NCBI GenBank assembly: GCA_035287045.1
Contig: DATECF010000256.1
Coordinates: 43,125 to 107,124 of the forward strand
Length of the DNA stretch: 64,000 bases
Reading direction: 5' to 3'
From: Gemmatimonadales bacterium
Lineage (GTDB): Bacteria > Gemmatimonadota > Gemmatimonadetes > Gemmatimonadales > GWC2-71-9
In this document: one piece after another, positions 55,409-64,000 of the stretch
Numbering within the stretch: the stretch's first letter is position 1
Layout: each line of letters starts with the position of its first letter
Notes under the pieces: model-generated
Told to the model about the DNA's origin: nothing
What the model saw: the letters and a program-made list of their open reading frames with translations, nothing else
Databases searched by the model: none
Position numbers and translations under genes: made by a program

Positions 55409-56587
55409 ATGCGCCTGACCTTCCGCCACCGCCTGTTCCTGGGGCTCATCGCCCTGGGGACGGTGCCGCTCGCGGCGGCCCTCGTGGCCCTGGCGCTGTA
55501 CGTGCGCTCCACCGCCACGCTGGCCGGCCCTCGGGCGGCGGTGGACAGTATCGCCGTGAGCGGGCGCGCCGTCATCGAGGCGCTGGACGCCACCGCCCTC
55601 GACGACTCGGCCCGCGCGTTGGTGCGCCGGCACGAAGGGCAGATGGCGGTCGCCGCCAGGCTCACCCGCCGGGCGGAAACCCTGTCCCGTGTCGCGGCGC
55701 CCGCGCTGGCGGCGGTGGCGCTGTTCGCGGCCGCCGTGCTGGTGGGCCTGTCCGTGATCTTCGTCCGGAGCTGGGCCGCGCAGGTCTCGGCGCCAGTGGA
55801 GGAACTGGTGGACTGGACTCGCCGCATCCAGCGCGGCGAGTCCCTGCCGCCAGAGAGGAGCCGGCGCGTCGCCCCGGAGCTCGTGACGCTGCGGGACGCC
55901 CTCCGGGAGCTGGCCGCCGCCCTGGAGGGGGCGCGCCGGCAGGAGATCGAACGGGAGCGCCTCCAGGCGTTCCGGGAAACCGCCAGGCGCGTGGCGCACG
56001 AAATGCGCGGCCCGCTCACGGCCGCCCAGCTGGCCCTCGGCCGCCTGGTCGAGAATGCCGACCCAAACTCGCAGGCGGCTCACCGCGTACTGGCGGAGGA
56101 GACCGAGCGCCTGAAACGCATGGCCGACGAATTCTCCGCGTTCGGCCGCCTCCCGGAAGGTCCGGAGAGCGACATTGACATGACCGAGCTGTTCGAGAGC
56201 GTGCTGACCGCCACCGTGCCGGCCGAGTGCCCCGTGGGCCGCAGCCTCGAGCCGGGCCTGGTGATTCGCGGGCGCTACGAAGCCCTGCGCCGCGCGGTCC
56301 AGAACGTGGTGCGGAACGCGGTGCAGGCGACGGACGGCCGCGGCATCGCCGTGAGCGCTTCGCGGGACGGCGCCCGCGTGATCTGCGTGGTGCGCGACCA
56401 TGGAGCCGGCATTCCGGTGGAGCTGCGCCGCCGGCTGTTCCAGCCGTACGCCACCACCAAACCTCAAGGCACCGGACTCGGGCTCGCGATCGCCCATCAG
56501 GCGGTGGCCGCCCACGGCGGCACGCTCACCACGGAAGACACGGCGGGGGGCGGCGCCACGTTCGTGTTTTCTTTCCCCGCGGCGTGA
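55409..56587 (+). CDS. sensor histidine kinase (two TM, HAMP-like linker, HisKA, HATPase)
   Basis: H-box [12 protein letters not shown]-box VVRNAVQA, G-boxes RDHGAGIP and GTGLGLAIA. Confidence 0.9.
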
Positions 56588-57963
56588 GCCCCCGCATCCT
56601 CGTCGTGGACGACGAGGCCAACCTCCGGCGGATGCTCCAGGCGCTGCTGGAAGACGCCGGCCACGAAGTGCGCGCCGCGGCCAGCGGCGCCGAAGCGCTC
56701 GCCGCGGTGCCCGCCTTCAGCCCGGAGGCGGTGCTCCTCGACCTGGTGCTCGGCGACGGGCCCGACGGCCTCGCCGTGTTGGAGCAGCTCAAGGCGGGCG
56801 ATCCCGACCTGGTGGTCATCATGATGAGCGGCAAGGCCACTCTGGCCGACGCGGTGCGCGCCACCCGGCTCGGCGCCTTCCAGTTCCTGGAGAAGCCGCT
56901 CTCACCCGAGAGCGTGCTCACCACCACGCGCGCCGGCCTGGACCTGGCGGCGGCACGAGCCGACGCCAGGGCGCTTCGCGCCGCCCTGACGCACGACGAC
57001 GAGATGGTGGGCGACAGCCCCGCCATGGCCGCGGTGCGGCGACTCATCCGCCAGGTAGCTCCCACCACAAGCCGGGTACTGATCACCGGGGAGTCGGGCA
57101 CGGGGAAGGAGCTGGTGGCGCGCGGCGTCCACGCGCAGAGCCCGCGCGCGCTCAAGCCGCTGGTGAGCCTCAATTGCGCCGCCGTCCCCCGTGAGCTGTT
57201 GGAAAGCGAGCTGTTCGGCCACGAAAAGGGAGCCTTTACCGGCGCGGTCCAACGGCGCGTCGGGAAGTTCGAGCTGGCACACGGAGGGACGCTGTTTCTC
57301 GATGAAGTGGCTGAGCTGGAGCCCGCCGCGCAGGCGAAGCTGCTGCGGGTGCTGGAGACCGGGGCGGTGGACCGGGTGGGCGGCACCGCCGCGCGGATGG
57401 TGGACGTGCGGGTGGTCGCGGCAACCAACAAGAACCTCGAGCGGGAGGTTCAGGCCGGCCGGTTCCGTGCCGATCTGTTCTTCCGGCTGAACGTGTTCCC
57501 CGTCAACGTGCCGCCCCTGCGTGAACGGCTCGAGGACCTACCTATGCTGGTCGAGCATCTCGGGCGCCGAGCGGCGGCCCGCTGCAACCGGCCATCGCGC
57601 CGCGTGGGTGACGCGGCGCTCGACCGGCTGCGGGCGCACACCTGGCCCGGCAACATACGGGAGTTGGCCAATCTGATTGAACGGCTCACCATCCTGGGTG
57701 AAGGCCCGGTGAGCGTCGCCGAGGTCGAGCCGATGCTCGCGGCCCCGCTGAGCGCGCCTACCACACCGCGCGCCGGTTCCGCGACGCCGTCACTGAGCGA
57801 CGCGCTGGAGCACTACGAGCGGCGGCTGATCCGCGAGGCGCTGGATGCCGCCGGCGGGAATCTCGCAGAGGTCGCACGACGCCTGAGCACCGACCGCGCC
57901 AACCTCAACCGCCGTATGCGTCGCCTGGGCATGAGTCGAAACGACCCGAACGAGTCCGAGTGA
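56584..57963 (+). CDS. sigma-54-dependent response regulator (NtrC/NtrX-like enhancer-binding protein)
   Basis: GTG 56584 overlaps the kinase TGA (GTGA). The protein has a REC domain (ILVVDDE...DLVL), an AAA+ domain ([20 protein letters not shown]) and a C-terminal Fis-type HTH. Confidence 0.9.
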
Positions 57964-58032
57964 CACGGAACGCGGCGTTGTCCGTTTTCGGTGGTCCGTT
58001 GTCCAGGAAGCACTTACGAGCCGACACGCCGC

Positions 58033-58049
58033 CGGTACGCTCCGTGCAT
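58033..58049 (+). promoter_or_regulatory. candidate sigma-54 promoter (CGGTACG-N4-GTGCAT)
   Basis: GG at 58034-35 and GC at 58046-47 have exact GG-N10-GC spacing. 5 of 7 and 5 of 6 positions match TGGCACG/TTGCAT. It lies 23 nt upstream of ATG 58072 and just downstream of the activator gene. Confidence 0.45.
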
Positions 58050-58071
58050 ATGCACCATGCCGGAGGTAGCG

Positions 58072-58281
58072 ATGGCCAAGATCTTCGTGTTTTTCTGGTG
58101 CGTAGCCGGACTGCTGACGCTGGATGTGGTGCTGCGAACATCGGCGTCGCGTCCGCCCCGCCCGCCCCGGTCCGCGGTGACCGCCGACTCCCTGCCCGTG
58201 CTCACCCAGATCCGCACCCGCTGCGAGCTGCCGGCCGGAACGGTCGTGTTCGTGGTGCGCGACCGGGAGCCCTCGCCATGA
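58072..58281 (+). CDS. small membrane protein (69 aa)
   Basis: GGAGG lies 5 nt upstream of ATG 58072. One TM helix (IFVFFWCVAGLLTLDVVL). Its stop overlaps the next ATG (ATGA at 58278-81). Confidence 0.5.
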   Translation: MAKIFVFFWCVAGLLTLDVVLRTSASRPPRPPRSAVTADSLPVLTQIRTRCELPAGTVVFVVRDREPSP

Positions 58282-59954
58282 CGAGCCGATGGGCCCTGCT
58301 GGCAGCGGTCCTCGGGGCTCCATTCCCGCTGGCGGCGCAGGACACGGTGCTCGTAGCGCGCGGCGTGCCGGCCGGCGAACGCGCCCTCCGGATGTTCAAC
58401 GGTGAGAACACCACCCGCCACTATGGAGAGCAGACCATCAGCCGCGGGACGACCATCCGCACCGACCTCGGCGTTCTGGATGGCCCCCTCAACCTGTACG
58501 GCACGGTCGAGGGCGACCTGGTCGCGATCAACGCCGATGTCTCGATCTACGCGGGCGCCGAGGTCCTGGGCGATGTCCTCGTGGTGGGCGGCACGCTCTT
58601 CGTCAGCGAGGACGCCGACGTCGGCGGCTCGGTGGAACGGCATTCTGATCGTATCGGCGTCCGCGTGGTGGACGGCCGGCTGGAGGTCACCGGAGCACGC
58701 CCTCGACCGGTCGTGGTGAGCGGGGATCGCCGGCTGCGGCGATCCTACAACCGGGGACGCGCTTCGCTGGCGGTGACCACCGGACGCACCTACAACCGGG
58801 TCGAGGGGCTGGCGGTGATGGCGGGCCCGAGGATCACCTGGTCCGATCGCGCCACGGCGGTCCGCCTCGAGGCGCTCGGCATCTGGCGCACCGCCACGGG
58901 CTTCGATCCGGACATTGACAATCGTGAGCTGGGCTACGACGCGCTGGTTTCCCTGCGGCTGGGACCGGAACGGCAGATCGAGATCGGCGGCCGGGCGTTC
59001 GACGTCGTGACGCCAATAGAGGATTGGCAGCTCCGGAGTGACGAAGCCGGGCTGGCGACGCTGCTGTGGCACCGCGACTACCGGGATTACTACCTGGATC
59101 GCGGCGTGGCCGGCTTCGCGCGCCTGAAGCCATCGCCGGAGGTCACGCTGTTCGGGGAGTTGGCGCGTGCCGAGGCCACGTCGGTCGCCGCCCGCGACCC
59201 GTGGACCCCGTTCCGCGACGCCGAGCCCTGGCGGCTCAACCCCCTGGTGGACGAGGGCACGTTCACGCGCTTCACCGCCGGCTTCGATGTGGACACCCGA
59301 TACCAGGACCGGTGGTCCACCGGCATCCGGCTGCACGCCGAATGGGAGCGCGGCCGGAGTGAGGCAGTGGCGGAGCGGGTCTTGCCGCTGGCCGTGCGGC
59401 CCCCCTTACCCCTTACCCCTTACCAGTACGACCGCGTCTTTGGCGATCTGCGCCTGTACCAGCCTGTGGGTTGGGGCGAGCTGCGGCTCCGGGCGGCCGG
59501 CGGCACCGTGCTGGGCGACGCGCCGCTCCCGATCCAACGCCGCTTCTCGCTCGGGGGCCCCGAGCCGATGCCGGGGTACGGGTTCCGGCGTTTCGCCTGC
59601 AACGACTTCGTCGCCGACCCCGCCCTACCGGCGTTGTGCGATCGCATGGTGGTGTTCCAGGCGGAATACCGCGGCGGATTGGATATCAATCCGTTCGATG
59701 CCTGGGACCGCGACGCCTGGCACGGGCGTCGCGACCGGGACTGGGGCGACTGGGAGGATTTCTGGTGGGAGGGCCCGCAGGTCGTGCTGTTCGCCGACGC
59801 GGGGACCGGGTGGCTCAAGGGGTCCGACCCGGGGCGGCTCCACTGGGACATCGGCGCCGGGCTGGAGGTGGGGAGCGTCGGCCTGTACGCGGCGCGCGCC
59901 ATCGAGCGGAATCAGCCGATCCGCTGGACCCTGCGCATCCACCGCCGGTTCTAG
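58278..59954 (+). CDS. outer-membrane beta-barrel protein (Omp85/surface-antigen-like) with N-terminal bactofilin-like repeat domain
   Basis: Signal peptide MTSRWALLAAVLGAPFPLAAQ, then a bactofilin-like repeat (GTVEGDLVAINADVSIYAGAEVLGDVLVVGGTLFVSEDADVGGSV). The C-terminal barrel has FSLGG..PGYGF and a terminal Phe. Confidence 0.75.
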   Translation: MTSRWALLAAVLGAPFPLAAQDTVLVARGVPAGERALRMFNGENTTRHYGEQTISRGTTIRTDLGVLDGPLNLYGTVEGDLVAINADVSIYAGAEVLGDVLVVGGTLFVSEDADVGGSVERHSDRIGVRVVDGRLEVTGARPRPVVVSGDRRLRRSYNRGRASLAVTTGRTYNRVEGLAVMAGPRITWSDRATAVRLEALGIWRTATGFDPDIDNRELGYDALVSLRLGPERQIEIGGRAFDVVTPIEDWQLRSDEAGLATLLWHRDYRDYYLDRGVAGFARLKPSPEVTLFGELARAEATSVAARDPWTPFRDAEPWRLNPLVDEGTFTRFTAGFDVDTRYQDRWSTGIRLHAEWERGRSEAVAERVLPLAVRPPLPLTPYQYDRVFGDLRLYQPVGWGELRLRAAGGTVLGDAPLPIQRRFSLGGPEPMPGYGFRRFACNDFVADPALPALCDRMVVFQAEYRGGLDINPFDAWDRDAWHGRRDRDWGDWEDFWWEGPQVVLFADAGTGWLKGSDPGRLHWDIGAGLEVGSVGLYAARAIERNQPIRWTLRIHRRF

Positions 59955-59957
59955 AGA

Positions 59958-60551
59958 GTGCGCCTGGGACTGGCGGTGTCGCTCGGAGCACTGTTCGCTG
60001 GAGCCTTGAGCGGGCAGGAGCGGCCCTCGCTCCGCGTGGATCTCGGCGGGCCGGATTCCCCGGAGGCGCTGGTGAGCGTGCGCGACCTGCTCGGCGAGCC
60101 GCGATTTCTTCAGGCGCTGGAGTCCGGCTTCCCGCTGTACATGGAGTACAGACTGGCGCTCAGGCGTACGCGCTCGTTGCGCGACCGGACCGTGGGGGAA
60201 CCTGTGGTCTGGGAGTACGTGGTGTTGTTCGACCCGGTGCGCGAGCGGTTTACGGTGGAGACGCCCGACGGCACCGAGCGCCTGCCCGATCGCGAGGCGC
60301 TGCGGGCGCGGCTGGCGCGGGTGTACCGTGTCCCGCTGGAGCCCGAGCGCGCCGGCGAGTACTACTGCGCGGGTGAAGTCACCGCGCGAACCCTGTCGGA
60401 CGACGACGTGGACGAGACCTTCGCGTGGCTCAAGGGACAGAGCGGCGGGCCGGGATTGTTGGACCGGATCGCGCGGCGGGTGCTGGTGGAGGTGGCGCCC
60501 CTCCCGCGCATCAAGCTCAGCGGGAGGAGCGCCACGTTCCGTTGGCGGTGA
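59958..60551 (+). CDS. DUF4390-like periplasmic protein
   Basis: GTG start 4 nt after the previous stop, and a signal peptide. ALESGFPLYMEYRLALRR and YVVLFDPVRERFTVE..LPDREALRARL resemble the DUF4390 pattern as I remember it. Confidence 0.6.
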   Translation: MRLGLAVSLGALFAGALSGQERPSLRVDLGGPDSPEALVSVRDLLGEPRFLQALESGFPLYMEYRLALRRTRSLRDRTVGEPVVWEYVVLFDPVRERFTVETPDGTERLPDREALRARLARVYRVPLEPERAGEYYCAGEVTARTLSDDDVDETFAWLKGQSGGPGLLDRIARRVLVEVAPLPRIKLSGRSATFRWR

Positions 60552-60558
60552 CGGCTAC

Positions 60559-62097
60559 CTACGGCCGCTGCAGCCAGAAGGTGTACGACCCGCTGCCCGA
60601 GTACGAAGTGATCCGCCAGTAGTAGTAGCCGAACGACCCGTTGTAGCTGATCTCCTCGGTCGAGCTGGCGCTGGTGGAGGACGCCACGGGGAGCCAGCCC
60701 CACCACCCGTACCACCGATACAGGTACAAGTCGAAGTCCGTGCCCGACGGACCCTGCAGCCACCCGCGATGCGTGCCGATGCCGCTGTAGTAGTACGTGC
60801 CGTTGGGCTGGTTGTCGTAATCGCCGGTGCCGGACAGCGAGCCGGTGAACTGCTCGCAGTCGGTGCATGGCGCCGGTGGGGGCGGGGGCGGCGGAGGCTC
60901 GCCGTTCCCGTCCAGCAGCGAGTAGAGCAACCGGTTGGGCGAGCCGCTGCCGATCGCGGTCAACTGGTTGGCGGTCGCCCCGCTCACCAGGGCCTGCGCC
61001 ACCGCGGCGGGCGTGGCCGTCGAATGGGTCTCCAGGTAGAGCGCCGCGACGCCGGCCACATGGGGGGCGGCCATGGACGTGCCGCTGATGGTGTTGGTGG
61101 CCCCGTCGCTGGTTGACCAGGCCGATGTGATGCTCGCGCCCGGCGCGAACAGATCCAGACAGCTGCCGTAGTTGGAGAACGACGCTCGCGCGTCGCTCTG
61201 GGTGGACGCCCCCGTGGTCAGCGCCGCGGCCACGCGCGCCGGCGAGTAGTTGCAGGCGTTGGCGTTACTGTTGCCCGCCGCGATCGCGTAGGTGACGCCC
61301 GCGTTGATCGAGTTGTTGACCGCGTTGTCGAGCGCGGACGACGCGCCGCCGCCCAGGCTCATGTTGGCGACCGCGGGATCCTGGTGGTTGCCGGTGACCC
61401 AATCCACCCCGGCGATCACGCCCGACGTGGTGCCGGACCCGCTGCAGTTCAGCACCCGCACGGCGTACAGCGTGGCGTCCTTGGCGACACCGTAGGTGGC
61501 TCCGCCGATGGTCCCCGCGACGTGGGTGCCGTGGCCGTGGCAGTCCTGGCCGTCGCCGCCGAGGGCGTCGTAGCCCACCCCCGCGCGCCCGCCGAACTCG
61601 CCGTGCGTGGTACGGATCCCCGTGTCGATCACGTAGACCCGCACCCCCTCGCCGCTCGCGTGGTAGAGATAGGTGTTGTCGAGGGGAAGCGTGGCTTCGT
61701 CAATGCGGTCCAGGCCCCATGTTGGATTGGCCTGGCTGCCGCCGCCGACGATGCTCATCACCTGATCCGTTTCGACATAGGCGACGATGGGCAGCCGGCG
61801 CAACGCCTCGACGGCGGCCGGCGAGAGCGTGGCCGCGAAGCCGCGCAGCGCCCAGCGATAGGTGTGCACCAGCTCGCCACCGTAGAGGCGGATCAGACGG
61901 TCCGCTTCGGCGGCCGGGTCGCCGGCCCGCGCGTTGAACACCACGATGTAGCGATCGGGCACGGCTTGCGCGGCCGAGAACATCGGGGCCGGAAGGTCCC
62001 GGGTTTCCTGGGCCGGTGTGGTGGGACTGTCAGAGCACGCGGTGGCGAGCCCGGCGAGGGACGCGACCACCATTCCAGCATGCAGCCTTGGCCTCAT
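60559..62097 (-). CDS. S8 family serine peptidase (proteinase K/subtilisin-like) with I9 propeptide and C-terminal PPC-like domain
   Basis: ATG 62097 is preceded by GGAGG. Catalytic triad motifs: [27 protein letters not shown] poly-Pro linker ([10 protein letters not shown]) precedes the C-terminal domain. Confidence 0.9.
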
Positions 62098-62242
62098 GAA
62101 TACCTCCGTGAGAGGGGAAACGGAGCCCTCCAAGGCGCGGGCGCACGGCCCCGGCCGGGTCAGTCCAATTGGGTCTTCGACGGCCCGACCGTCAACCGGG
62201 GAATCCCGCGGTGGCGTCCTGGTCTGGCGATCGCGCGCTCGT

Positions 62243-62258
62243 TGGCACTGGAATTGCA
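62243..62258 (+). promoter_or_regulatory. perfect sigma-54 -24/-12 consensus TGGCAC-N5-TTGCA
   Basis: TGGCACTGGAATTGCA at 62243-62258, intergenic. It is oriented toward, and antisense to, the plsC-like gene. Confidence 0.4.
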
Positions 62259-62279
62259 AAACGGCGGCGGGAAGGACTC

Positions 62280-63599
62280 TTAGACCAGGGACCGCTCTTC
62301 GTAGAGAAGCTTGAATCGCTCGGCCAGCTCCCGCTGCCGGTCACGCAGCGTAGCGACCAGATCCTGGCGGGAGCGCAGCAGAAAGAACCGTCGCGCATCG
62401 ATCCAGGCGCCGCGCCAGCGTTCCCGGATCACCAGGCCCGCCATGCCAACCACCGGCACGACGAGCAGGACGGCGAGGACGGCAGACGGCCCCTGGCTGA
62501 ACCCGGCGACCACCGCCAGCAGCAGCAGCCAGGCCCCGTACACGGCACCACCTAACAGCAGCTTCCAGGTGGAGCGCTCGTCCACATCCAGCCGGAGGCG
62601 ATCCACCAGCTTCCCGGTGAGCCAGTAGGGGGCGAGGAACAGCAGCAGGCCGGCAAGCGCCAGCAGCAGGGCCATGGGCATCACCAGCACGTAGCGTCGC
62701 ACCGCCCACCCCACGCTGGTGGCGAGGTCCGCCCGCGCGCCCAGCCACCGGGGTGAGAGCCGCAGCCGCGCCAGCCGCCGCCGGTGCGCCCGCACGGCCC
62801 GCACCAGCTCGTCCCACCGGGGATCCGGCGCACGCCGCAGATCGGCGAGAATGCGGGTGGTGACGTCCAGCCGCTGCACGCGCTCGGCGCGATCGGGGCC
62901 CGACCCCCACTCCGCTTCCCACACGGCCACGGCGGTCTCCACCAGCGGCCGGTCCTCCCAACGCTCCAGGTTCAGCGTCACCTGCCGCAGCCCCACGCCG
63001 ATGCGCTCGGTGAGGTCCCGCACGGCGTCAGGGTCCTCCGTGCCACGATCGGCGAGGTCATCCCAGGGTACCGCCGAGCCGACCACAATGAGGGCGTCGG
63101 ACCGGAAGATGTCCTTTTGCCGGAACACCAACCCCATCGGGACGATGGGCACGCGCGTGCCGTGCGCCGCGTGGGTTCCGAGCACGATGCGCGCCGCTCC
63201 GGTCTTGAGCGTCACCATGGACGGCTCGCTGTGACTTTGGCCCTCAGGGAAAATCCCGACGGCCGCGCCGCGGGCCAGCGTGGCGTACACCGCCCGGAAC
63301 GTGTCCGTGTTGCGATCCATGAGGGCGGGGTCATCCACCCGGCGATACACCGGAATCGCGCCCACCGCCCGCATCATCCAGCCGGTCTTGAAATCGCTGA
63401 ATAGGGGCGCCTTGGCCAGGAACCGCACCGGGCGTCTCGCCGCGGCGCACACCAGGATGGGATCGATCAGCGAGTTGGGATGATTGGCGACCAGCAGCAC
63501 CGGCCCGTCGCCGGGGACGCGGTCACCGGCGACGGTGAGCCGGTAATAGACCCGGGCGGCGGCGTTCGCGAGCAGGGAAAAGGCGGGCGCGAGCCACAT
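62280..63599 (-). CDS. lysophospholipid/glycerol-phosphate acyltransferase (PlsC family) with C-terminal multi-TM extension
   Basis: ATG 63599 shares one nt with the upstream TGA. It has the acyltransferase motif LLVANHPNSLIDP and FPEG, followed by about 190 aa containing about four TM helices. Confidence 0.8.
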   Translation of the reverse strand: MWLAPAFSLLANAAARVYYRLTVAGDRVPGDGPVLLVANHPNSLIDPILVCAAARRPVRFLAKAPLFSDFKTGWMMRAVGAIPVYRRVDDPALMDRNTDTFRAVYATLARGAAVGIFPEGQSHSEPSMVTLKTGAARIVLGTHAAHGTRVPIVPMGLVFRQKDIFRSDALIVVGSAVPWDDLADRGTEDPDAVRDLTERIGVGLRQVTLNLERWEDRPLVETAVAVWEAEWGSGPDRAERVQRLDVTTRILADLRRAPDPRWDELVRAVRAHRRRLARLRLSPRWLGARADLATSVGWAVRRYVLVMPMALLLALAGLLLFLAPYWLTGKLVDRLRLDVDERSTWKLLLGGAVYGAWLLLLAVVAGFSQGPSAVLAVLLVVPVVGMAGLVIRERWRGAWIDARRFFLLRSRQDLVATLRDRQRELAERFKLLYEERSLV

Positions 63600-64000
63600 C
63601 AGCGCGCGCTTACCTCCCGCCCCCATGCTTGAAACGCCACGCGGAAATACGTCGGCGAGAACATCATCCATTCCTTGAAGTCGGCCGGCAGCTCGTAGGC
63701 ATCGGCCGCCTGATCCAGGGGCGTGCCTGCGGCGATCGCTGCTTTGGCCTTCTCGCCCACATCGTCCAGCAGCGTGAGGTAGCGCTCGATGTCGCCCCGG
63801 CGCGCCAGCTCGCCGTGCCCCGGCACGTACACCGCGTCGCCGGCGGTCAGGAGCTCGCGCACGCTGGCGGCCTTCTTGGCGGGCGTGGCGTCGCGGTAGT
63901 TGGGGAACATCCGGTTCCACACCAGATCACCGCAGAACACCACATGCGGATCGCTCACCTCGACCGTCACGTCACTGGCGGTGTGGCCCGATCGCGGCGT
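63599..64000 (-). CDS. MBL-fold metallo-hydrolase (3' part; the gene continues beyond the window)
   Basis: The reading frame is open to the window edge (..SGHTASDVTVEV..FCGDL..VPGHG), which is typical of MBL motifs. Confidence 0.7.
   Translation of the reverse strand, partial: TPRSGHTASDVTVEVSDPHVVFCGDLVWNRMFPNYRDATPAKKAASVRELLTAGDAVYVPGHGELARRGDIERYLTLLDDVGEKAKAAIAAGTPLDQAADAYELPADFKEWMMFSPTYFRVAFQAWGREVSAR

Follow-up and report, generated by a model that had tools for sequence, protein, structure and literature searches.

A conserved sigma-54-type -24/-12 element pointing away from an S8 peptidase gene in a Gemmatimonadales bacterium

Genes for a PlsC-like acyltransferase and an S8 peptidase were found on the minus strand of the window, by which we mean the whole 64-kb stretch of DNA that was analysed (68.5% G+C). 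A sigma-54 type element lies between them on the plus strand. The features of the locus are as follows:

62280-63626, minus strand: PlsC-like acyltransferase with C-terminal membrane helices (Pfam Acyltransferase, 6.5e-20)
60559-62097, minus strand: S8 (subtilisin/aqualysin-like) peptidase with a signal peptide and an I9 propeptide (Pfam Peptidase_S8, 4e-41; Inhibitor_I9, 1.9e-8)
62243-62258, plus strand: sigma-54 type -24/-12 element TGGCAC-TGGAA-TTGCA, TGGCACTGGAATTGCA, an exact and unique match
62266-62272, plus strand: putative transcription start zone, about 10-14 nt past the -12 GC, placed by standard sigma-54 geometry
62196-62242, no strand assigned: 47-nt spacer separating the TTGACGGTC box from the sigma-54 element; most of its sequence has diverged
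62187-62195, minus strand (S8-sense): conserved box TTGACGGTC, retained in all four lineages described below
62098-62165, minus strand: 5′ leader of the S8 gene, from alignment and consensus fold
56584-57963, plus strand: NtrC-family activator with receiver, Sigma54_activat and HTH_8 domains (Pfam) and GAFTGA at residue 335 of the translated ORF

The PlsC-like protein is 100% identical to the 448-aa protein P0001, and its stop codon occupies 62280-62282 of the minus strand. Among the homologues of the PlsC-like and S8 proteins, all those with a source name come from Gemmatimonadota. The gap between the two genes is 182 nt, and the sigma-54 motif within it is oriented away from S8 and toward the plsC stop, which is an intergenic antisense geometry. 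The preliminary description had placed the motif in a 182-nt intergenic space and had it point antisense into the PlsC-like gene; the geometry is as it stated.

The dinucleotides characteristic of the element, GG at 62244-62245 and GC at 62256-62257, stand at canonical spacing, and 11 of the 11 specified positions of TGGCACTGGAATTGCA agree with the consensus TGGCAC-N5-TTGCW. When both strands of the 64-kb window were searched for TGGCAC-N5-TTGCA, TGGCACTGGAATTGCA was the single match, so that the perfect consensus claimed for 62243-62258 (+) was recovered as the sole one in the window. Dinucleotide-preserving shuffles of the window gave a mean of 0.02 matches, with at least one match in 2 of 100 shuffles, in line with the 0.02-0.03 chance matches estimated earlier. 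It is worth noting that 0.02 per 64 kb corresponds to 1-2 chance matches in a genome of several Mb, and a perfect match by itself is therefore not proof of function. It is the comparative evidence that lifts the element above a chance match.

The element was also scored on a position weight matrix (PWM) built from 42 gene-facing intergenic E. coli ChIP sites (Table 1 of PMC4591121), with the spacer columns neutralised and the background set to 68.5% G+C. On this matrix, TGGCACTGGAATTGCA reached 19.1 bits, while the training sites have a median of 16.0 and a maximum of 19.5 bits, and the second-best of the 127,968 window positions reached 12.25 bits. A scan of about 208 kb of related loci gave, apart from the orthologous sites described below, a single further match of at least 15 bits, CTGGCATTCCGCTTGCG in L016 (3103-3119, minus strand; 15.5 bits), which faces a VanZ-like gene from 56 nt upstream. 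As this putative promoter is a canonical, gene-facing one, the E. coli-type consensus applies in the clade. In L016 the VanZ-like gene and the PlsC-like gene are divergently oriented; the corresponding place in the window is without a VanZ-like gene. Antisense sigma-54-like matches of 14 bits were seen within the S8 genes of L020 (6072-6088, minus strand) and L026 (490-506, minus strand). They were rejected as related sites, since they arise from the codons that encode the catalytic AAGN(S/P)xA motif (GGC AAC NNN AGT GCC A), and they provide an example of coding constraint generating look-alike sites.

To follow the element beyond the window, 29 loci from relatives were gathered, and four lineages were found to carry an S8 orthologue at the same slot. 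The first is the population of the window itself, with L003 and L029 (S8 DNA 99% identical). The second is L004 (PlsC 93%), the third comprises L010, L014, L015 and L017 (PlsC about 83%; S8 88% as protein and 86% as DNA), and the fourth comprises L007, L018 and L019 (PlsC about 79%, S8 84%). In the protein database, the identities of S8 orthologues run through 98, 88, 84 and 82% and then fall to 66%, which leaves no further orthologous lineage there except that of the short contig L026 (S8 82% identity), from which the upstream DNA is absent. The orthologous sites are the following:

L004: TGGCACTGGATTTGCG, TGGCAC-TGGAT-TTGCG
L017, L010, L014 and L015: TGGCACCGGATTTGCA, TGGCAC-CGGAT-TTGCA
L018, L019 and L007: TGGTACGCGACTTGCA, TGGTAC-GCGAC-TTGCA

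Conservation at the orthologous locus, a check named in the preliminary description, was thus found in 4/4 lineages with S8 at the slot (S8 protein identity 84-98%). In all of them the element lies on the strand opposite S8, with GG and GC retained, and the three orthologous sites score 15.2, 19.1 and 16.7 bits on the E. coli-derived matrix. Of the 33 consensus positions compared with the window in the three other lineages, 2 differ; the spacer differs at 6 of 15 positions and the 25-nt flanks at 78 of 150. The difference between consensus and flanks gives a Fisher p of 4e-7, or 3e-9 for the two distant lineages alone, values that are optimistic because the four lineages come from one narrow clade and are phylogenetically non-independent. 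Specified positions that are kept around a free N5 are the pattern expected of a -24/-12 element. Homology among the S8-bearing lineages begins at the sigma-54 site, and the stretch from the site to the upstream gene cannot be aligned.

We then looked at what might be produced in the direction of firing. Sigma-54 promoters usually start transcription about 10-14 nt after the -12 GC, and a transcript starting there would reach the plsC stop codon, antisense, within about 10 nt. The plus-strand ORFs past the site are Arg/Ser-rich shadow frames, none of which passes a GC3 coding test, and the earlier statement that no credible plus-strand ORF follows stands. An intrinsic-terminator scan of 61900-63900 found no plus-strand terminator in the 1.6 kb that follow the site, nor elsewhere in that range, and Rfam gave no match at E <= 1 in 61800-62800. 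The predicted RNA of 155 nt (62266-62420) is not more structured than its shuffles and is in fact less stable (z = +1.57). The sequence 3′ of the site shows no conservation, being unalignable among the lineages, and the gene lists of L014 and L017 contain no divergent gene that the site could serve within at least 5 kb, the real genes there all lying on the opposite strand. A sigma-54-dependent sRNA was rejected for the missing Rfam match, terminator, stable fold and conserved downstream sequence, and a small protein was rejected on the character and GC3 of the shadow ORFs. A conserved sRNA, a small protein or a long-leader mRNA from the site is unsupported.

The sigma-54 activator that the preliminary description had noted 4.3 kb away is present: its gene ends at 57963, 4.28 kb from the element, and the GAFTGA loop is intact. 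Its start was taken from the 459-aa orthologue in L029. Given a GAFTGA-bearing activator, the organism very probably has sigma-54. The rpoN gene itself is not in the 64-kb window, in whose six-frame translation no RpoN-box peptide was found; an rpoN gene is not expected in a given 64 kb. The activator belongs to a plus-strand gene set that includes a histidine kinase, the NtrC-type activator, a 69-aa/559-aa pair and a weak DUF4390 match. This set ends 7 nt from the S8 stop and abuts the 3′ end of S8 in three of the four lineages. In L018, S8 is followed directly by a DinB gene, with no activator operon adjacent, and the site is kept. Adjacency of the activator is therefore not required, and the link to the activator 4.3 kb away suggested in the preliminary description is not supported.

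Activators of this type usually bind 75-150 bp upstream of the sigma-54 start, typically at a dyad. Comparison of the lineages revealed no conserved inverted repeat of this kind upstream of the site. A GACGG-N5-CCGTC dyad present in the window was rejected as an activator dyad, as it is retained neither in L017 nor in L018. The TTGACGGTC box lies at about -75 to -85 from the inferred sigma-54 start, at fixed spacing. As a link to the activator, an upstream motif common to this site and to the weak -24/-12-like CGGTACGCTCCGTGCA described below was also sought, with the GTTGTCC repeats downstream of the activator gene and GTTGACGG upstream of S8 as candidates. It was dismissed: with 19 occurrences of the degenerate form GTTG[AT]C[CG]G in the window, the likeness of the TTGACGGTC box to the GTTGTCC repeats is non-specific.

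Several further observations concern the activator gene set. Downstream of the activator stop (57963) there are tandem GTTGTCC repeats at 57977 and 57998 together with a conserved GCACTTACG (window 57977-58074, plus strand). A -24/-12-like sequence, CGGTACGCTCCGTGCA, is located at 58033-58048 (plus strand), 24 nt before the ATG (58072) of the gene for the 69-aa membrane protein, which heads the 69-aa/559-aa/DUF4390 set. This arrangement is kept in L028 and L013 and scores 3.9-6.3 bits on the E. coli-derived matrix, and CGGTACGCTCCGTGCA is a candidate for a promoter on which the regulator itself acts. The large ORF that follows the activator gene (57960-59954, plus strand) has no Pfam match; in relatives its counterpart is called as the 69-aa and 559-aa proteins, followed by a 197-aa protein with the weak DUF4390 match. 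Near the convergent S8 stop, at the 3′ end of the DUF4390 gene, an inverted repeat of 16 bp with 94% complementarity (60492-60535, plus strand; GTGGCGCCCCTCCCGC / GCGGGAGGAGCGCCAC) may be a terminator common to the two convergent units.

Which of the two flanking genes the site belongs to can be judged from its inheritance. At eight PlsC-bearing loci without S8 at the slot (L013, L016, L005/6, L027, L028, L001, L002 and L009), no site was found at the corresponding junction, where the best score is at most 5 bits. In L018, L019 and L007 the gene order is plsC-MFS-S8, and the site lies between the MFS stop and S8 and is directed into the MFS gene. The distance from the site to the TTGACGGTC box is 47, 47, 48 and 48 nt in the four lineages (11 loci). 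Toward the upstream stop codon the interval varies, from about 20 nt (window, L004) to tens of nt more (L017, L018). The box itself is exactly TTGACGGTC in 10 of the 11 loci and TTGACGGCC in one sub-lineage. L018 has suffered a deletion of the S8 leader and about 92 first codons, the coding homology restarting at ...AVEALRRLP, and despite this deletion neither the site nor the 48-nt spacer nor the TTGACGGTC box has been lost.

The deletion was also seen as a feature of the peptidase itself. In L018/L019 (4838-5040) and in L026, S8 lacks the signal peptide and most of the I9 propeptide, and the deletion begins just past the conserved upstream box. Even so, an intact S8 ORF of 405-410 aa is kept in two versions that have diverged (84% and 82% identical to the window protein). 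The S8 homologues at 66% identity (L020 and L021-25) have no upstream site on either strand, with best scores of 4.8 and 0.7 bits, and an older origin of the site, shared with distant S8 homologues, was rejected on this account.

The emphasis that the preliminary description had put on plsC as the target is not supported, as the site is inherited with S8, is missing at the eight plsC loci without S8 and faces MFS in L018. Its underlying proposal was a sigma-54 promoter for a cis-antisense RNA that controls the PlsC-like gene or its operon, the RNA pairing with the 3′ end of the mRNA or transcription colliding with it, possibly under the NtrC-like regulator 4.3 kb away. The immediate entry of such a transcript into the plsC stop codon speaks for this proposal, as does the upstream operon common to all four site-bearing lineages (M14 peptidase, YdjM, MBL, cytochrome c, plsC and sometimes MFS), and regulation by long sigma-54 antisense transcripts has been proposed in E. 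coli (PMC4591121). The siteless plsC loci count against it, and so do the MFS gene as the first gene met in L018 and a distance that is fixed on the S8 side and variable toward the upstream stop. The same is true of the failure to find a conserved or structured RNA or a terminator, and of L018 with no activator operon beside S8. We consider this proposal improbable. Because the operon is common to all four lineages, some antisense action on it keeps a place among the candidates, less well supported than the tie to S8.

On the S8 side, the region between the site and the start codon has features of its own. The TTGACGGTC box could serve as the -35 region of the S8 promoter or be bound by a regulator; a generic sigma-70 scan gave no promoter in the region, hence the -35 role is only inferred, and an arrangement of the type TTGACG-N17-CCWAKY was set aside as a guess. 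A sigma-54 promoter driving S8 on the minus strand was excluded too, since inspection and the PWM scan found no GG-N10-GC in consensus context upstream. The 5′ leader of S8 is near-invariant among lineages whose S8 coding DNA is 86% identical. In its predicted hairpin the Shine-Dalgarno GGAGG is paired with an upstream GCCTY, and a second stem, GGAGGG/CCCTCT, adjoins it. The leader gave no covarying pairs that would prove this fold, and no Rfam match; it may be a translational control element.

Linkage to S8 and a fixed distance from an S8-side box would also suit regulation of the S8 promoter by some other DNA-binding protein, bound about 50 bp upstream of TTGACGGTC, the likeness to sigma-54 being coincidental. 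An example would be a response regulator that recognises TGCAA-N6-TGCCA, on the S8-sense strand, as direct repeats spaced by one helical turn. A position upstream of S8 is the usual place of activator sites, and nothing is encoded in the direction in which sigma-54 would fire. Against such a protein, the conserved positions are exactly the 11 of the sigma-54 consensus and the variable ones are its N5 spacer, the match is 11/11 both in the window and in L017, and 0.02 chance matches are expected per window. The -24 change in L018 gives TGGTAC, and the same C-to-T after GG is seen in E. coli ChIP sites (TTGGTATG..., Table 1, PMC4591121); this change also reduces the direct-repeat likeness of the half-sites. 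It is therefore unlikely, in our estimation, that another protein accounts for the element.

It should be noted that the slot separating plsC from the DUF4390 gene (window 60552-62279; L013, L014, L016, L017, L018, L027 and L028) varies in gene content among close relatives. The variants include S8 alone, S8 with a second S8, MFS alone, MFS with HxlR and BBE oxidase genes, MFS with a truncated S8, and fragments of the second S8. The slot is a local hot spot of gene gain and loss. A mobile-element boundary with an outward promoter was considered and rejected, as there are no terminal direct or inverted repeats around the S8 module and no transposase.

In so changeable a place, the element could be a relic of the promoter of a lost divergent gene, or a harmless parking site of the holoenzyme, that persists through linkage to S8. 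Such a silent site would agree with the lack of any downstream gene, RNA family, terminator or conserved sequence, and with the frequent rearrangement of the slot; in enterobacteria, many sites are considered noise or storage (PMC4591121, PMC7657599). The pattern of change points the other way. In L017 and L018 the flanks and the N5 are at near-random identity, yet 21 of 22 consensus positions are kept, which means that drift had time to erase an unselected 16-mer. The site has also outlived two separate rearrangements, namely the upstream MFS gene and the deletion of the S8 5′ end in L018. No flanking repeats or signs of mobile elements occur at the S8 module, and the S8 homologues at 66% identity have neither a divergent gene nor a site upstream. 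The probability that the site is such a leftover appears to be low.

Based on the above results, we suggest that the element is probably a real sigma-54 site under selection. We lean, with less assurance, toward a fuller reading in which this genuine sigma-54 holoenzyme site is maintained by selection as part of the upstream control region of S8 while facing away from S8. The first interpretation of the locus is in this way retained in part: the sigma-54-like conservation, the score in the top range of the PWM, the presence of an activator, the antisense aim and the lack of coding sequence downstream agree with it, and the focus on plsC and the link to the activator do not.

The following course of events is proposed for an S8 control site. 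Some 50 bp upstream of the S8 promoter box, the holoenzyme would wait on its near-ideal site in a stable closed complex. Activation by an enhancer-binding protein would then send a non-coding transcript, in antisense, into the 3′ end of the upstream operon (plsC, or MFS in one relative), and the binding zone of the activator would overlap the S8 promoter and leader. With no conservation of the RNA sequence, any effect would stem from occupancy, or from divergent transcription as such, and not from the RNA. Candidate outcomes would be the blocking of read-through from the upstream operon into S8, or collision with it, or modulation of the adjacent S8 promoter. For E. coli, occupancy has been found to correlate with the score of the motif, and binding of the holoenzyme occurs there without transcription (PMC4591121). 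Mutations of intergenic RpoN sites in Yersinia had both positive and negative effects, and mutations of antisense sites lowered the expression of the sense-strand gene (PMC7657599), so effects independent of an RNA product have a precedent.

A roadblock or coupling mechanism of this kind is put forward tentatively, with a rather small probability. Much the same holds for the more specific idea that the site is an integral, fixed-geometry part of the S8 promoter, where a holoenzyme parked 47-48 bp upstream of the box, or its divergent firing, gates the protease. Gating could take the form of a head-on roadblock or insulator against upstream read-through. Alternatively, firing could be coupled to the S8 promoter via local supercoiling or a common activator.

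If true, sigma-54 would here have a regulatory use that needs no transcript and is conserved outside Proteobacteria. The locus is a compact and testable case for what gene-averse sigma-54 sites do, in a distant and little-studied phylum. The evidence of selection is clean in that the consensus is kept while the spacer and the flanks are scrambled, with one neighbour gene at a fixed distance. Even a silent site would be informative, as a case of a near-perfect site that persists although it yields no product.

The class invoked in the preliminary description, sigma-54 sites directed away from genes, does exist. Genome-wide ChIP studies in enterobacteria have turned up the 'outside antisense' (OA) sites of E. 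coli, 8 among 50 intergenic ones (Bonocora et al. 2015, PMC4591121), and in Yersinia pseudotuberculosis the 'group B' of RpoN sites, which are likewise intergenic and antisense (Mahmud et al. 2020, PMC7657599). The element described here is a likely member of this intergenic antisense class, judging from its sequence and placement. It is similar to the OA and group B sites in its geometry, in the lack of an obvious product and in a motif conserved between related species.

Other known systems are alike in part. With canonical sigma-54 promoters (glnAp2, pspA) the element shares the -24 GG and -12 GC, their spacing, the extended consensus and a GAFTGA activator in the window; unlike them, it has no sense-direction gene or RNA and no recognisable conserved upstream activator dyad. 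Sigma-54-dependent sRNAs such as GlmY, whose promoter is site OS24 in Table 1 of PMC4591121, likewise start from an intergenic sigma-54 promoter without a following ORF, but the present site lacks a conserved RNA sequence, a stable structure, a terminator and an Rfam match. Long antisense transcripts of the 'excludon' type, which silence one neighbour and serve another, are cited in the discussion of PMC4591121. As there, the promoter is aimed at the 3′ end of an oppositely oriented operon; in contrast, no divergent gene to serve lies within at least 5 kb in the gene lists of L014 and L017, and the transcript here is only inferred.

In contrast to the OA and group B sites, the present element belongs to a member of Gemmatimonadota, far from Enterobacteria, and is known here from sequence alone. 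Its consensus is perfect, unlike that of the E. coli OA sites, most of which range from weak to middling. It also differs from the enterobacterial sites in its fixed spacing to the promoter region of one neighbour gene, S8, with which it is co-inherited. To our knowledge, fixed spacing and co-inheritance with a neighbour gene have not been reported for enterobacterial sigma-54 sites. The distinguishing features of this site are its phylum, its perfect consensus and its co-inheritance, at a fixed distance, with one gene.
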